Positions 282-5,876 of a stretch of 5,876 bases of DNA are shown here, one piece after another (position 1 is the first letter of the stretch; each line of letters begins with the position of its first letter). Where the stretch lies: IMG/VR virus record IMGVR_UViG_3300045988_022706, one strand, 5' to 3'. Below the pieces are notes generated by a model. It had not been told where the DNA came from, made no database searches, and saw only the letters and a list, made by a program, of their open reading frames with translations. This stretch comes from a virus. A program made the translations under genes and the position numbers.

Positions 282-309
282 TCAAAAATAGCCCCGCTTT
301 TGCGGGGCT
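282..309 (-). terminator. Rho-independent terminator on the viral strand immediately after the VP1 stop codon. The stem is AGCCCCGC/GCGGGGCT (8 bp, GC-rich) with a 4-nt loop, followed by ATTTTTGA.
   Basis: Perfect inverted repeat at 290-297 and 302-309, with loop tttt at 298-301. On the minus strand the hairpin is followed by a T5 run. The VP1 stop TAA is at 320-322, 10 nt upstream. Confidence 0.75.
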
Positions 310-319
310 TCCTCCTTTC

Positions 320-1993
320 TTAGATTCTTTCGATGCCCGGAATGCTGTAGATGGGCATTTCGCGATACCAGTCTTCCGTGAAATAGAAGTCACACAAGAA
401 TTGGTGGCTTTTTTCGCTCGTCACTGCAATTGTTCGGTCAACGTTCTGCGTTCCTTCCTGAATCCACTCCGCCGAGAGACGCGGGAGTTTGTCATAATCG
501 TCCGCATAGTGCCATGCATCCAGTGACGTCTGATAGTTAGACCGCATTTCTCCGGTTACGTAAGAAGGCTTGTAGCGGTAATCTGCCCATGCCTCTTGAT
601 AGCCAAAGATTTCGTCATCTTCTGCCGTGCCTTGTGCATAGATTTCACGATTATACACCGGCTGTTCGCCCAGTGCTGCTAGACGCGGGTCGTAGTAGGT
701 GAATCGCCCGCCACGTGTCCACTTGGTTGCAAGCCCCTGCTGGTAGCTGTGCTCTACTCGTACCACTGCCAGTCCGATGATGTAGCCGTATTCGGTTGCT
801 GCATAGTCTACCATCTGCTTGCTGCACGTGGTCAAGCTGTATGCTGCCGTATTGCCTAGTGCCTGTCCGGTTGTCGGGTCTGTTTGGCTCGTCTGGACGA
901 CTTGGTTTACATTGATTGCGATGCGCTGACCGCCGATGTACTCAGGAATTTGAAGCCTGCTGTCTGGACTTGTTACGCCCCATGTGCCGGAAAGGAACTC
1001 GCGATAGCGCGTGCCGTTGCGTGCATCTGCCTCAAAGATGTGCTGCAGTGCGATGCTCATTCGTAAATCTGCAATGCTGATTGCGCTTACTCCGCTTAGG
1101 TCTGCTGACAGAATTCCTTGTCTTCCTGTTTCTCCGTTTGCGTCCGTTCCGATAATGTTTGCGTATTGGTTCGGATTTGGCCGCGTTGTCATGTTTTGAT
1201 TGAATATGTAATTTTTATGGCTAGCTGCACTCGCTGTGTTGAAGTAGATAGATTTACTATCTGTGTATAGGTTTCCGTCTATATCCTTTAACTGTACTGG
1301 TGCATCACCCGCTAGGCTGATTTCTACAGGGTCATTTTTTAACGGCGTTGGGAGACAGGATGTGTAATAGTCGTGGAATTTTCCGGCCTTTGCCGGAAAT
1401 CGTGCGTATGCGGTCCCTTCATTTATGTTTGTCGTCAGGCTCGGTTTGTTTAAGTAGAATTCTTTGGTTGCGTTTCCGGGATTGGGTTCTTTTCCCGCGT
1501 CATCGGTTTTTTTGAACCCTACCATTAACGGTGCTTCTAGATTTTCATCTCTGAACCATTCGTTATAAATCATGGCATATGCGCGTGCCGGCAGTGCGTT
1601 TACCTTGATTTCATTTTTGATTCCGGTTGGCAGTCCGAAATAGTCTCCTAAACTGCCACTCACTAGGCCGCTTTGGCCGCCGATTTTGCAAGTCGGTGTG
1701 CTATATTCTGTCTTTTCTGCCCAGTAGTCGGTGTCATTCTCGCCGAACATGTTCTCCCAGTGTTCCCAGAGTAGACGGCATGGAACAAAGAAGAAATAGG
1801 TGTCCATGTACGCGTTATCCATGATAGGATAGATGGGTGTACTCATGCGGATAAGGCCGTTCAGGCGTACACGTGCTGTATCACCTGGAAGCACTTCGTC
1901 ACAGTAGATGGGTACCAGTTCGCCTTCGTTGATGGTCGTTAAGAGCTGGTGGCTTCGGTCAAACTTGCTTCGCGGTCTTTCCATTCGTGGCAC
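320..1993 (-). CDS. VP1: Microviridae major capsid protein VP1 (F-like). The ORF track starts at a GTG at 1991-1993; the more likely ATG start is at 1982-1984 (MERPRSKFDRSH...).
   Basis: 557-aa ORF. Its N-terminus contains the family-typical motifs FDRSH, LVPIYCDEVLPGDT, STPIYPIMDN and YFFFVPCRLLW, and its size matches gokushovirus VP1 proteins (about 530-570 aa). Confidence 0.95.
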   Translation of the reverse strand: MPRMERPRSKFDRSHQLLTTINEGELVPIYCDEVLPGDTARVRLNGLIRMSTPIYPIMDNAYMDTYFFFVPCRLLWEHWENMFGENDTDYWAEKTEYSTPTCKIGGQSGLVSGSLGDYFGLPTGIKNEIKVNALPARAYAMIYNEWFRDENLEAPLMVGFKKTDDAGKEPNPGNATKEFYLNKPSLTTNINEGTAYARFPAKAGKFHDYYTSCLPTPLKNDPVEISLAGDAPVQLKDIDGNLYTDSKSIYFNTASAASHKNYIFNQNMTTRPNPNQYANIIGTDANGETGRQGILSADLSGVSAISIADLRMSIALQHIFEADARNGTRYREFLSGTWGVTSPDSRLQIPEYIGGQRIAINVNQVVQTSQTDPTTGQALGNTAAYSLTTCSKQMVDYAATEYGYIIGLAVVRVEHSYQQGLATKWTRGGRFTYYDPRLAALGEQPVYNREIYAQGTAEDDEIFGYQEAWADYRYKPSYVTGEMRSNYQTSLDAWHYADDYDKLPRLSAEWIQEGTQNVDRTIAVTSEKSHQFLCDFYFTEDWYREMPIYSIPGIERI

Positions 1994-2952: not shown

Positions 2953-3354
2953 TTACACCCCCTTTCTGTATTTTTTCTCGGTTCGCACATCAAAGTGCAC
3001 CCAAGTGTTGTATACGATAATGCCGCATTCATCCGGGACGATTTCATTCAGTTTGTTTGCAAGTTCTTTTGCGCTCATGCCATTGACCCGGATATCTGCT
3101 GCCATACCGCACATGTGGTAGCTGTATTTTGCTCCGTTGCATTTTTTGTTCCACTCTGGTGTTCTGTATCCGCTGTTTATGTGTACTGGCTTTCCAATTT
3201 TGTTTCTTAGAATGTCAAGTATCGACACCAAGTGGTCGTCTACATAAACCACTTGTGAACCGTCTTTACATGCAAATTCTTGTACTTTAAAGTGCTGTCC
3301 TATTTTTTTGTTTGCTTCTTTGTCCATGATATAGCATTTAATCATCTTTGTCAA
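2953..3354 (-). CDS. Peptidase M15 family zinc D-Ala-D-Ala carboxypeptidase-like cell-wall hydrolase, the likely lysis enzyme. The track ORF begins at a TTG at 3352-3354; the more likely start is the ATG at 3343-3345, preceded by AAAGGAGA, giving a 130-aa protein.
   Basis: The protein carries the motifs F-KVQEFACKDG, SGYRTPEWN, HMCGMAADI and WVHFD, which are characteristic of the peptidase_M15_3 zinc-binding H/D/H triad. Confidence 0.85.
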   Translation of the reverse strand: MTKMIKCYIMDKEANKKIGQHFKVQEFACKDGSQVVYVDDHLVSILDILRNKIGKPVHINSGYRTPEWNKKCNGAKYSYHMCGMAADIRVNGMSAKELANKLNEIVPDECGIIVYNTWVHFDVRTEKKYRKGV

Positions 3355-3535: not shown

Positions 3536-3562
3536 GGTTTTCGCCTTCCTTTCTGTGATTAT

Positions 3563-3591
3563 ATTTTATCATTTTTTTTAAAAAAAGTCAA
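3563..3591 (-). promoter_or_regulatory. Sigma70-type promoter on the viral strand: -35 TTGACT (3586-3591), a 17-nt spacer, and an extended -10 TGATAAAAT (-10 hexamer 3563-3568, TG at 3570-3571). It is preceded by an A8 UP-like tract (3593-3600).
   Basis: The motif was read directly on the reverse complement. The spacing and the hexamers match the consensus at 5/6 and 5/6 positions, and an extended -10 TG is present. The predicted transcription start is about 20 nt before the ATG of the 65-aa ORF. Confidence 0.6.
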
Positions 3592-3648
3592 GTTTTTTTT
3601 AGAATTTTAATTGATATATTAGTAACTCGGTTTTGCTCCTTTGTTTTG

Positions 3649-3717
3649 AAAGCGCTTTAGCGCTCTGCCGTGTGTAGCGTATGCGGAACTCGGCTAAATC
3701 CATTCCTTTTTAGCGCT
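3649..3717. promoter_or_regulatory. Cluster of the palindromic hexamer AGCGCT at 3651-3656, 3659-3664 and 3712-3717, plus the variant TAGCGT at 3675-3680. It includes a 10-bp palindrome AAAGCGCTTT (3649-3658) and lies just downstream of the VP4 stop. It could be an operator or a weak terminator hairpin (AGCGC-TAAA-GCGCT).
   Basis: Seen directly in the sequence. The function is inferred only. Confidence 0.3.
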
Positions 3718-3724
3718 GTGCGCG

Positions 3725-4729
3725 TCATGCTTTTGGTTCACGCCACTTTTGCTTTAGCTTGTCTTTTTCTTTTTGAATGTTGAGATACGTTTCGTAATCT
3801 ACGCTTGTGCTCTGTTCGAGATTGACTAAACTTTGTATTGCGCTGCGTCTACGTTTGGCTCTAACCTCTCTCAGCTCGTCAGAATGTGCTCTAAAATAGC
3901 TTTCTGTGTCTTGGCTGGTATCTTTATCTAGAATCTTATCAAAATAGCGTGGAGGCCTTTTCTCGCGTCCTCCTGCGCATATGATGCTATCTGTTTTTAG
4001 GATTTCATCTTTGTGTTCGTTTAGATACTTTTCGCCGATGCCTTTTGACATGATTCTAAATTCAGGTTCTCTACCTTCCATCCAGTATTTTGCCGCTTGC
4101 TCTGCACCTATGGCTTTTTTGTTGACGTACTGTGCCACGTATGCAAAACTTCCTGGTTGTGCTGGTGAAAAGTCTATCATGCCTTTGCCCCAGATTTTTT
4201 GTAACCATTCCGACTTGAAATAGCTATTTCCTTTTTGGTTTTTATACCATTGTGCATCCGGTGGCTTTAATCCGAATACTATTGCATGATAGTGCGGTCT
4301 TTTTGTTCTGTCGCCGTATTCAGCCGCTAGGAAGTATTTTATCGGTTTCTTGTATGCTTTTCGTAGCCGTTTTATAAACAGCTGTACGTCTCGCTTATTC
4401 ACTGTCTGGCTTTGAATGCTTCTGTAGCCTTTGAGAATCTCGCCGTATGGGATGTGCTCATCATCATATGTCAGTGTTAGAAAAATCACATCGTCCCACT
4501 CTTTGGCCTCTAGCTCTATTCTGGTTGCCCATTGTTCAGCCATTTGTTTCCGGCAATATTCGCACTTACCACATGGTAACAATGCGAATTTTCCTTTTTT
4601 GATTCCGTCCATGATGTCTGCTTGCAGTCCTTGCTTGGATAGGTTTTCTAGACTTCCCCACAGTTGTGGTTTTTTCGTGTCCATCTGAAATACTAATGGT
4701 TTTGTACATGGCATTTTTGTTACCGGCAC
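3725..4729 (-). CDS. VP4: Microviridae replication initiation protein VP4 (A-like HUH rolling-circle endonuclease). The track start is a GTG at 4727-4729; an ATG at 4712-4714 is an alternative start.
   Basis: The 334-aa protein carries a C-x2-C-x2-C motif in CGKCEYC, motif I FLTLTYDD, the HUH motif PHYHAIVFG, and the double-tyrosine motif YVAQYVNKK. Confidence 0.93.
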   Translation of the reverse strand: MPVTKMPCTKPLVFQMDTKKPQLWGSLENLSKQGLQADIMDGIKKGKFALLPCGKCEYCRKQMAEQWATRIELEAKEWDDVIFLTLTYDDEHIPYGEILKGYRSIQSQTVNKRDVQLFIKRLRKAYKKPIKYFLAAEYGDRTKRPHYHAIVFGLKPPDAQWYKNQKGNSYFKSEWLQKIWGKGMIDFSPAQPGSFAYVAQYVNKKAIGAEQAAKYWMEGREPEFRIMSKGIGEKYLNEHKDEILKTDSIICAGGREKRPPRYFDKILDKDTSQDTESYFRAHSDELREVRAKRRRSAIQSLVNLEQSTSVDYETYLNIQKEKDKLKQKWREPKA

Positions 4730-4756
4730 AAGCTTCCTTGTCTATCTTGTGCCGGT
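4722..4756. promoter_or_regulatory. 11-bp perfect inverted repeat ACCGGCACAAG / CTTGTGCCGGT with a 13-nt spacer, straddling the annotated VP4 start codon. The SD-like AAGGAAG of the mRNA falls in the loop.
   Basis: 4722-4732 is the reverse complement of 4746-4756. A regulatory role in VP4 translation or transcription is inferred. Confidence 0.4.
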
Positions 4757-4790
4757 TGACACCTCGCTTTCTTTTTATATTAACTTGTTG

Positions 4791-4808
4791 TAGTAGTAGT
4801 AGTAGTAG
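4791..4808. repeat. (TAG)6 trinucleotide microsatellite, which reads (CTA)6 on the viral strand, in the region upstream of VP4.
   Basis: The sequence tagtagtagtagtagtag was read directly. Confidence 0.9.
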
Positions 4809-4977
4809 TGTTGAAAGTGTTGAAAACTCGTTTTTTTAACGTTATTACGTTTAATTATTGCCTTTTTCTATGTTGAAAACTTTGTTGAAAACTTGTTGAA
4901 TTGTTGAATGTTCGTCATTTTGACGAATTTCTTTGTGCAACTTGTTGTTGAAAACCTGTTGAAAGTGTTGAAAACTC
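4809..4977. repeat. Array of nine GTTGAA(A/T) iteron-like repeats in three clusters (starts 4810, 4819; 4872, 4884, 4895, 4903; 4947, 4958, 4967) with spacings of roughly 8-12 bp. It is bounded by a 21-bp perfect direct repeat TGTTGAAAGTGTTGAAAACTC (4809-4829 and 4957-4977). A 7-bp palindrome TTCGTCA-TTT-TGACGAA (4911-4927) sits between clusters.
   Basis: All repeat copies were located by direct reading. The near-helical phasing and A-tract content suggest protein-binding iterons and/or intrinsically curved DNA, which would fit an origin or control region. Confidence 0.8.
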
Positions 4978-5017
4978 AAGTTTTCCACATTCTCTATTTT
5001 CTGGATTATTGTTTCTT

Positions 5018-5054
5018 TGCGCGTGTGTGCACGTTTCGTGCGCGCGCGCGTATA
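5018..5054. repeat. Two strictly alternating purine-pyrimidine tracts, tgcgcgtgtgtgcacgt (5018-5034) and gtgcgcgcgcgcgtata (5038-5054, including (GC)5G). These are Z-DNA-prone and CpG-rich.
   Basis: Read directly. Both tracts are at least 17 nt of uninterrupted purine/pyrimidine alternation. Confidence 0.8.
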
Positions 5055-5115
5055 GTGATAATAGACTGTTTGCCTTACTGCAGCGGCAGCCACCCGCGTA
5101 GGGGGGCGTGACGCA

Positions 5116-5148
5116 AGGGGGGTCGCAAACCAATCTTGCGACCCCCCT
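5116..5148. other. Perfect 13-bp GC-rich hairpin AGGGGGGTCGCAA-(ACCAATC)-TTGCGACCCCCCT. A second G6 tract lies upstream at 5101-5106. It sits in the VP2 3' region and noncoding DNA, and is a candidate ssDNA structural element (complementary-strand origin, packaging signal or transcript 3' structure).
   Basis: 5116-5128 is the exact reverse complement of 5136-5148, with a 7-nt loop. The hairpin is not followed by a U-tract on either strand. Confidence 0.6.
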
Positions 5149-5229
5149 CTTCTATACATGATTTTGTTTTGGTTGCCGCTTGTCTGGTGTCCCCTGTGTT
5201 GGGGAAACCTTAGCTTTGCGCGGAAAGGG

Positions 5230-5876
5230 TTAATCTCCTTTGTACGGTTCTCCAGATTTGAACCCATCAATTAGTTTGCGTCTTCTTGCTGTCTTGTCGA
5301 TAGTATCTTTAGCTACTTTGTCAATGCCTCCTTTGGCTGCTTTACCAGCCTTTTTTACTGCGTCTTTCGCTGCTTTGCCTGCTCCTGCAAGGCCTGCGCC
5401 TAACTTGTTAGCTGCATAGCTGTACTGTTGCGCCTGTTTTGCGCTTGAGGTTGCCAGCTCGCTTGCTGCCTGTTCCCAGCTTTTCGCATTCTTAAACTGT
5501 TTTGCGCTGGTGGCCTGTTTTGCCAGCTGTAAGTATTTGTCTGCTAGCTCTGCTGTGTTGTTGCCGTATTCGTACATAGCGCTTACACTTGCAGCCTGTG
5601 CGCTCTGCTGGTTATAACGTTGGTTTCCAATGCTTGCTGATGCTCCGCTTGTTGACGCTGTTGCACCGTTGGTTGCTGCCAGAATAGGATTGATTCCCGC
5701 TGCAATCATGTCCTTCACGGTATCTTGATACGCTGTCCCGCGCATTTCCTTCTGAAATGCTCGTTCCGCTGCTGCTTCTGCGCTGTTGTACTTCTTGGCG
5801 CTTGCTTGGCTTCCAGCATTTGCAAGGTTGCTCAGTAGTCCGCTCATCATTTGCAGTGCGTTTGCGGTGTTTACGC
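5230..5876 (-). CDS. VP2: Minor capsid / DNA pilot protein VP2: the C-terminal 206 aa plus 26 nt of upstream in-frame sequence. The ORF continues past the window end into positions 56-281 through circular closure.
   Basis: The conserved pilot-protein block ...AAAERAFQKEMRGTAYQDTVKDMIAAGINPILA... is present, together with Gly/Ala/Lys-rich low-complexity repeats such as AGKAAKDAVKKAGKAAKGG. These features, and the gene's position after VP1, are typical of microvirus VP2. Confidence 0.85.
   Translation of the reverse strand, partial: VNTANALQMMSGLLSNLANAGSQASAKKYNSAEAAAERAFQKEMRGTAYQDTVKDMIAAGINPILAATNGATASTSGASASIGNQRYNQQSAQAASVSAMYEYGNNTAELADKYLQLAKQATSAKQFKNAKSWEQAASELATSSAKQAQQYSYAANKLGAGLAGAGKAAKDAVKKAGKAAKGGIDKVAKDTIDKTARRRKLIDGFKSGEPYKGD

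Follow-up and report, generated by a model that had tools for sequence, protein, structure and literature searches.

A putative oriC-type DnaA module between VP2 and VP4 of a gokushovirus genome

Results

The VP2-VP4 spacer holds a repeat cassette and a GC-rich block

The DNA analyzed here in its full length of 5,876 nt (the window; IMG/VR record IMGVR_UViG_3300045988_022706) is a circular gokushovirus genome of about 5,820 nt, as positions 1-56 are repeated at 5821-5876, and it carries all of its genes on the minus strand. Its closest GenBank genomes are the human-gut gokushoviruses KX513876 and MT121961 (about 87% identity). Our subject is the stretch 4730-5229, which lies between the stop of the pilot protein gene VP2 and the start of the Rep gene VP4, and above all a cassette of about 217 nt within it (module 1, about 4765-4990) that resembles the DnaA-dependent unwinding region of bacterial chromosomal origins (oriC). 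All evidence on this cassette and its role is sequence-based. No open reading frame with family support was found in 4730-5229, a scan of the whole window against Rfam at E <= 1 gave zero matches, and consensus scans of the window for promoters and terminators showed no enrichment, with no promoter-like site in the region and a single terminator-like one, the hairpin at 4910-4928 on the plus strand. A first-pass annotation made from the letters alone had called a spacer of about 500 nt atypical, and it is unusual even in its own lineage, as 7 of the 9 distinct closest relatives have spacers of 321-325 nt.

Coding capacity is a negligible prospect for this region. A frame of 139 amino acids (4851-5270, minus strand) is open in the window, but it has no Pfam or PHROG match, about 175 nt of it are missing in 7 of the 9 closest relatives, and the longest stop-free stretch in those relatives is 77-92 codons compared with 124-125 in the window and in relative L249. 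The remainder of the frame is homologous to bacterial intergenic origin DNA and is inverted in other phages. The first-pass annotation was right that the region is not a gene; the frame is not conserved, being without a family match and broken or absent in close relatives.

The cassette runs from an AT-rich stretch through TAG trios and tandem boxes to two more box clusters. Its features and the hairpin that precedes it are:

4722-4756, minus strand: hairpin over the VP4 start, with arms 4722-4732 and 4746-4756 (11 nt, 100% complementary)
4765-4781, plus strand: AT-rich stretch CGCTTTCTTTTTATATT, read directly, at the position of the duplex unwinding element in the bacterial basal unwinding system (BUS)
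4782-4790, plus strand: AACTTGTTG, a near-invariant phage-specific motif that takes the place of bacterial distal trios
4791-4808, plus strand: (TAG)6, matching DnaA-trios (5'-TAG-3' = 3'-GAT-5')
4809-4817 and 4818-4827, plus strand: tandem co-oriented putative DnaA boxes beside the trios, TGTTGAAAG and TGTTGAAAAC
4838-4851, plus strand: small hairpin AACGTTATTACGTT in the spacer separating box clusters
4871-4909, plus strand: central cluster of four co-oriented putative DnaA boxes, TGTTGAAAAC, TGTTGAAAAC, TGTTGAAT and TGTTGAAT
4910-4928, plus strand: hairpin GTTCGTCA-TTT-TGACGAAT between box clusters
4946-4990, plus strand: distal cluster with three co-oriented boxes at 4946-4955, 4957-4965 and 4966-4975
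4981-4989: inverted consensus DnaA box TTTTCCACA, which can pair with the last direct box

In the repeat listing, nine direct GTTGAA(A/T) units start on the plus strand at 4810, 4819, 4872, 4884, 4895, 4903, 4947, 4958 and 4967, and one inverted GTGGAAA lies at 4982-4988. Eight of the nine matches to GTKGAAA in the genome fall in 4810-4988, with a mean of 1.8 in shuffled sequences and none of 200 shuffles reaching 9. The elements that the first-pass annotation had named in this half are there, namely the perfect 11-nt inverted repeat over the Rep start (4722-4732 / 4746-4756), (TAG)6 at 4791-4808, a T7 tract at 4831-4837, a 21-nt direct repeat (4809-4829 = 4957-4977) and a central palindrome, which is the hairpin 4910-4928. 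Its count of nine repeat units also holds, but the even phasing it ascribed to them does not, as the units are grouped at spacings of 8-12 nt and are interrupted by two long gaps.

A matrix of ten phage boxes reads T-G-T-(T 0.80 / G 0.18)-G-A-(A/T)-A-A, and T and G interchange at the same aligned box from one phage to another. Judged by its sequence, this matrix is of the DnaA-box family (TGTGNAWAA). A different identity for the boxes was considered in Spo0A (0A-box) silencing sites, which occur in phage phi29 and would tie phage dormancy to host sporulation. TGTTGAA differs by one mismatch from the 0A-box, TGNCGAA, and this resemblance and a probable Firmicute host are all that favor such sites. 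The mismatch falls at the conserved C, and neither the TAG trios nor their register nor the perfect variants TGTGGAAAA and TTTTCCACA would be explained, so that Spo0A sites are most improbable here.

Folding of 4760-5000 as single-stranded DNA was no better than that of shuffled sequences (z = -1.4 and -1.5 for the two strands), and a structured single-stranded origin is accordingly not supported for this stretch. A XerCD/dif-like site suspected by eye at about 4836-4862 was also rejected, as the stretch is not conserved and the bacterial loci yielded no prophage copies.

The cassette is shared as a unit by divergent gokushoviruses

The phage set was assembled from two IMG/VR scans and from GenBank records, and counts refer to the matches listed. 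More than 180 gokushovirus contigs with the cassette were obtained. When the region was compared with phage genomes by BLAST, matches were found only for the repeat-bearing half (about 4774-4990), which 47 gokushovirus records share at 73-96% identity, some of them with genes that cannot be aligned at the DNA level. The same 73-96% nucleotide identity of the cassette is seen across phages whose VP1 and VP4 proteins are 33-48% identical. The alignment of related microviruses that the first-pass annotation had envisaged bears out conservation for the repeat-bearing half and not for the GC-rich half, which has no counterpart in most relatives.

In the window's own clade (clade A; VP4 >=79% identical, n=25 among the matches listed), the cassette lies between VP2 and VP4 and its trio strand is antisense to the genes, which is the bacterial polarity relative to dnaN. 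In the larger and distant clade B (VP4 33-39% and VP1 about 40% identical), its position is downstream of VP4, and among the matches listed the trio strand coincides with the coding strand in 88 genomes and with the antisense strand in 4. Two contigs, L100 and L020, are 93% identical over 5.4 kb, but their 217-nt cassettes are mutually inverted and 78.8% identical. As these cassettes are inverted and far more divergent than their flanks, the cassette is exchanged as a unit. The difference between 78.8% in the cassette and 93% in the flanks rules out a simple inversion in place and shows replacement, and an assembly chimera is ruled out because the cassette keeps consistent positions in IMG/VR and in the GenBank records of several studies.

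A conserved noncoding block of the window, GTAGCGTATGCGGAACTCGGCTAAATCCATTCCTTTTTAGCGCTGTGCGCG at 3676-3724, lies in a wider noncoding stretch (3536-3724) and is homologous to the sequence directly after the cassette in clade B (L004, L006, L007, L015); it marks the former position of the cassette, where most relatives carry it. A good sigma-70-like promoter (TTGACT-17-TAAAAT, minus strand, 3591-3563) adjoins this noncoding DNA.

From an alignment of 117 copies, the phage consensus begins with ATAATATATA-ACTTG-TTG-TAG-nnG-TAG-TAG-TAG-gggc-TGTGGAAAA-G-TTGAAAAC and continues with about 45 nt, four co-oriented boxes, a short hairpin, TTGTGCAAC and three or four further boxes. The box-proximal TAGs are invariant among the phages, and at the tandem-box position clade-B phages have GGGC-TGTGGAAAA-G-TTGAAAAC. 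An AT-rich run is found at the equivalent position in clade-B phages (ATTATATATA) and in bacterial origins, which also hold equivalents of the central box cluster. At the spot of the small hairpin, phages retain a short ACG...CGT inverted repeat with varying loops, and the hairpin 4910-4928 is retained in many relatives and not in distant ones.

The hairpin over the VP4 start forms the GC boundary of the AT-rich stretch. On the mRNA strand its loop contains AAGGAAG, a Shine-Dalgarno-like sequence, and its 3' arm contains the GTG start. It is kept in clade A, and in KT264784 GGCGCAAG...CTTGCGCC alters both arms with pairing preserved. Probably it serves translational control of Rep.

The cassette has the layout of the bacterial basal unwinding system

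The bacterial BUS is composed of a DnaA box or a tandem co-oriented pair of boxes, a spacer in which about 4 bp form a GC gap, and three or more DnaA-trios whose central base is A, of which 3'-GAT-5' (5'-TAG-3') is preferred beside the box; an AT-rich element comes after the trios. Published supplementary tables give BUS sequences 3'->5', and they are read here 5'->3'. In this reading, the BUS of B. subtilis is AT-rich-TAGTAGAAGTAATAGTAG-GGCC-TGTGGATT-TGTGGATAA, the complement of which, CTACTATTACTTCTACTA, is quoted by an independent source, that of C. botulinum is AAA-(TAG)6-GGCT-TGTTGATA-TGTTAATAA, and that of C. acetobutylicum is ...TAGTAGTAG-GGAG-TGTGGATT-TGTTGATAA. The corresponding part of the phage consensus is AT-rich-ACTTGTTG-TAG-nnG-TAGTAGTAG-gggc-TGTGGAAAA-G-TTGAAAAC.

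When the window was examined part by part, a proximal box with up to 2 mismatches to TTATCCACA and 0-16 bp from the trios was found in TGTTGAAAA (4818-4826), which has 2 such mismatches and is separated by 9 nt from the last TAG; clade-B TGTGGAAAA has 1 mismatch to TTATCCACA and lies 4 nt from the trios. As a second tandem box (up to 4 mismatches), TGTTGAAAG at 4809-4817 has 3 mismatches, and all ten direct boxes are co-oriented. (TAG)6 provides the trios (at least three, with central A, 5' of boxes of the TGTGGATAA type) in the orientation of the B. subtilis and Clostridium entries, and an AT-rich element is found beyond the trios at 4765-4781. The GC gap of about 4 bp is seen in most phage copies (GGGC, GGAG, AGGT, GCAA). 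On the complementary strand, (CTA)n supplies TnnT DnaD motifs. What the first-pass annotation had taken for a (TAG)6 microsatellite is, by sequence and position, better read as a DnaA-trio element.

Compared with the BUS of B. subtilis incC and C. difficile oriC2, the phage cassette is alike in its parts, their order, orientation and register, with TAG trios proximal to the box and, in most phage copies, a 4-nt GC spacer. Further co-oriented box clusters and a convergent box pair, such as bacterial TTGTTGAAAACTTTTAGTTTTCAACA, are also shared with bacterial origins, the TGTTGA variant is common to clostridial and phage boxes, and the box variant TGTTGAAAA / TGTGGAAAA is that of Oscillospiraceae and Ruminococcus origins. 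Unlike in the BUS, phage AACTTGTTG stands in for the distal trios, and unlike oriC, the cassette belongs to a single-stranded-DNA virus of 5.8 kb, is condensed into about 217 nt and occurs in either orientation. A chromosomal oriC would lie beside dnaA and dnaN, whereas the cassette lies between microvirus VP2 and VP4, and it should therefore be regarded as oriC-like in action or oriC-derived, not as oriC itself.

Binding of DnaA might also serve another end, the boxes titrating or sensing host DnaA without firing an origin, like datA or the box clusters of multicopy plasmids, and thereby shutting down host initiation or coupling expression of Rep and downstream genes to DnaA status. Ten to eleven boxes per genome and a multicopy replicative form would suit such a sponge, and in clade A the boxes lie directly upstream of Rep, as they lie upstream of dnaN in bacteria. 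However, titration requires boxes alone, yet the trios, the register and the AT-rich stretch are the best-conserved part of the cassette, and in clade B the cassette is located downstream of Rep and therefore is no Rep operator there. We consider the sponge improbable.

Related sequences fill the dnaA-dnaN spacer of Clostridia

The pattern TAGTAGTAGNNNNNGTKGAAANKTTGA, a 27-nt signature derived from the phage copies, was used to scan a single genome from each bacterial species, and 115 bacterial contigs were matched compared with about 0.07 expected by chance according to our own estimate. The site lies between dnaA and dnaN in 85 of the 115, with the trio strand always antisense to dnaA, as in B. 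subtilis; 25 have one of the two genes within the fetched locus and 5 have neither. In three loci the flanking dnaA and dnaN were confirmed by Pfam. The matched taxa are mostly Oscillospiraceae, Ruminococcus, Ruthenibacterium, Lachnospiraceae and other Clostridia, with further matches in Selenomonas, other Negativicutes and some soil phyla. No microvirus proteins were found in the 115 bacterial loci.

The bacterial dnaA-dnaN spacers contain 15-40 TGTKGAWA boxes each, a 15-40-fold clustering, compared with about 0-1 per 250 nt in other sequence. The phage cassette and the bacterial spacers align collinearly, at 62-73% identity, for up to 215-230 nt, including both inner clusters of boxes and the pair of convergent boxes. 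To avoid selection bias, an nhmmer profile was built from 103 bacterial spacers using only the sequence after the 27-nt signature. This profile matches the window solely at 4923-4990 (E = 3e-6) and 4811-4927 (E = 1e-4), gave no match in 200 shuffles of the region, and matches 103 phage loci with a best E of 2.9e-11.

The presence of the same boxes in bacteria bears on the view, taken by the first-pass annotation, that they are Rep-specific iterons. In a classical Rep-iteron origin the GTTGAAAAC repeats would be binding sites of VP4, and direct repeats beside a Rep gene are typical of iteron origins. But identical, host-type boxes fill the dnaA-dnaN spacers of Clostridia, which lack VP4. The boxes also persist unaltered where VP4 identity falls to 33-39%, instead of co-varying with Rep, and in most genomes the cassette is not beside the Rep start. 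A Rep-iteron origin is accordingly very unlikely.

Ten pattern matches on viral contigs other than microviruses were discarded as chance matches in Thr/Ser-rich coding repeats. In a scan for TAGTAGTAG-N4-TGTGGATAA, 17 large IMG/VR 'viral' contigs were also found (L315-L331, 9-160 kb), several of which show the layout of AT-rich stretch, trios, GGGC and tandem perfect DnaA boxes together with further box pairs, and no dnaA or dnaN in the fetched stretch. These may represent BUS-type origins in dsDNA phages or phage-plasmids, or misassigned bacterial DNA.

The motif AACTTG is a tentative nick site

(A/T)ACTTGTTG is kept by all 11 copies derived from BLAST and by about 65 of the 70 that were sampled via a different part of the cassette. 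Bacterial origins have no AACTTG motif, the AT-rich sequence running directly into the TAG repeats. The origin of phiX174 is nicked by gpA at CAACTTG|A, and the phiX174 30-mer was confirmed at 4299-4328 in gene A. By analogy, AACTTGTTG is a possible, if doubtful, candidate for a VP4 nick site, with cleavage at AACTTG|TTG between 4787 and 4788. It is nearly invariant across very divergent Reps, as nick sites usually are and iterons are not. As in the phiX174 origin (CAACTTG|ATATTAATAAC...), AACTTG is followed or flanked by AT-rich sequence, and 88 of the 92 clade-B genomes among the matches listed carry it on the coding strand. In contrast to phiX174, only six bases match and the rest of the 30-mer does not, the site is intergenic and outside the Rep gene, and there is no equivalent of the phiX174 binding sequence.

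The two candidate activities might be combined in a hybrid origin, in which DnaA would melt the duplex and Rep would nick AACTTG|TTG on the trio strand, the cassette being a complete replication module that sets the packaged strand. This hybrid is rather unlikely in our estimation; if it were true, clade A and the four inverted clade-B genomes would package the antisense strand and would be negative-sense microviruses.

A separate GC-rich block lies outside the cassette

The remainder of the region is a second module with the following features:

5008-5229, plus strand: variable GC-rich structured block outside the oriC-like cassette
5019-5051: CG/TG hairpin of 15 bp
5082-5092 / 5170-5180: long-range stem, which encloses the G6 hairpin 5116-5148
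about 5186-5209: further hairpin

The CG/TG tract (5019-5051) and the G6 hairpin (perfect, 13 bp, 5116-5128 / 5136-5148) had both been noticed in the first-pass annotation. The block folds far better than shuffled sequences (z = -5.5 for the plus and -4.2 for the minus strand). It is absent from 7 of the 9 closest relatives, and elsewhere it was found only in two further GenBank records and one IMG/VR contig; in KX513864 and KT264784 its homologue is on the opposite side of the cassette. In close relatives L001, L059, L114, L117, L262, L300 and L312, the 175-nt GC-rich block of the window is replaced by GGGGGATG-TTTTG-CATCCCCC, after which the coding strand has T6, and this short G5 hairpin with T6 is, from its sequence, an ordinary intrinsic terminator after VP2. 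The G6 hairpin of the window has no T-run on the coding strand. The block is best treated as a separate accessory module, possibly a single-strand origin or a terminator. Of the proposal that the whole region is a replication control center rather than a spacer, the part that holds is functional noncoding DNA linked to replication, neither spacer nor gene, whereas a single center gives way to two independent modules.

For the GC-rich hairpin tracts of the window (5000-5235), the antisense strand folds at -53.2 kcal/mol and the coding strand at -44.7 kcal/mol. In clade B, a tract 72 nt 5' of the cassette folds more stably on the antisense strand in 64 of 88 genomes, and 22 favor the coding strand. 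The advantage of the antisense strand comes from G.T pairs at places that are A.C mismatches on the coding strand, and such folding would be odd if the coding strand were the packaged strand.

Other features of the genome

The genes of the window referred to above are:

320-1993, minus strand: VP1 capsid protein (Pfam Phage_F)
2953-3354, minus strand: M15 peptidase endolysin
3725-4729, minus strand: VP4 Rep (REP_ORF2-G2P), with a GTG start at 4729
5230-5850, minus strand: VP2 pilot protein, with its stop at 5230

The endolysin protein (2953-3354) is 75-80% identical between the phage clades, compared with 33-60% for VP1, VP2 and VP4. It appears to be another module that is horizontally shared or host-constrained, which is consistent with a shared peptidoglycan-bearing host. 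At 133-175, upstream of the annotated VP2 start, there is a perfect 18-nt tandem repeat CTGCCTGTTGTGGTCTCG in 2.4 copies, and this stretch is probably part of the VP2 N-terminal region, wrapping round the ends of the window. Right after the VP1 stop, AGCCCCGCAAAAGCGGGGCT with a T-run behind it makes a strong terminator-like hairpin (290-309, minus strand).

Discussion

The composition, order and register of the cassette and its relatedness to bacterial dnaA-dnaN spacers suggest that module 1 is very probably an oriC-type DnaA module. It is also likely, on the same comparison, that the cassette copies or mimics the DnaA-dependent unwinding region of a host origin, that is the dnaA-dnaN spacer of Clostridia of the Oscillospiraceae/Ruminococcus type, and starts phage DNA synthesis; that it acts as an origin rather than as a sink for DnaA is probable. 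As a copy or mimic of such an origin, the cassette would imply that the virus probably recruits host DnaA, and it would reveal the likely host, an assignment derived from origin similarity among loci that had been chosen with a phage-derived pattern.

In the mechanism that we propose, host DnaA-ATP would bind the boxes on the double-stranded replicative form, DnaA would oligomerize onto the TAG-trio strand and melt the adjacent AT-rich/AACTTG segment, and the resulting bubble would start phage DNA synthesis by giving the VP4 nuclease access to AACTTG|TTG, by allowing entry of the host helicase loader, or both. The host helicase-loading route is suggested because the CTA strand carries TnnT DnaD motifs. 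A complete origin module would also account for function in either orientation and for swapping as a unit.

Several points weigh against an origin of this kind. The window lacks the 4-nt GC spacer, a fourth TAG being present there in its clade with the box shifted by 1 nt, its proximal box is degenerate and departs from TGTGGATAA at 3 positions, and its AT-rich stretch is short, shorter than the bacterial ones. That TGTTGAAAA serves as a DnaA box in the matched bacteria is itself a supposition from its clustering between dnaA and dnaN. AACTTG is antisense to the genes in clade A, which does not fit a classical plus-strand origin and argues against a simple nick version. To our knowledge, no Rep-encoding rolling-circle phage is known to need DnaA. 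Melting of the C. difficile origin in vitro requires a second box region upstream of dnaA, and B. subtilis requires a distal upstream DnaA box unless DnaA is overexpressed; the phage copy may be without an equivalent of this upstream box region.

DnaA-assisted origins are found in P1 oriR, pSC101, F and RK2, and a DnaA-box hairpin constitutes the 'A site' of the ABC primosome. Like such plasmid origins, the cassette would let a mobile replicon recruit host DnaA via DnaA boxes, but the plasmid origins pair few DnaA boxes with iterons of their own and have no trio or BUS layout. Like the 'A site', the inverted boxes of the window (4961-4994) could form a double-stranded DnaA box on single-stranded DNA, but many variants of the cassette have no such hairpin.

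Microviruses serve as the textbook example of rolling-circle replication driven by Rep, and full-text literature searches turned up no report of a DnaA-trio or BUS element in them. The BUS element type is known, but a mobile form of it in Microviridae, joined to a candidate Rep site, does not seem to have been described. A small single-stranded-DNA virus would here have captured the host's own initiation switch. The cassette would also give a group without any culture system a mechanism of origin melting, or of plasmid-like persistence, that can be tested. For the abundant gokushoviruses of the human and animal gut, whose hosts are unknown, it would provide a sequence-based host assignment, to Oscillospirales Clostridia, and the sequence of the cassette could assign individual uncultured gut gokushoviruses to Oscillospiraceae or Ruminococcus hosts. 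With about 217 nt, portable and present in both orientations, the cassette would also be a natural minimal BUS for research on DnaA.

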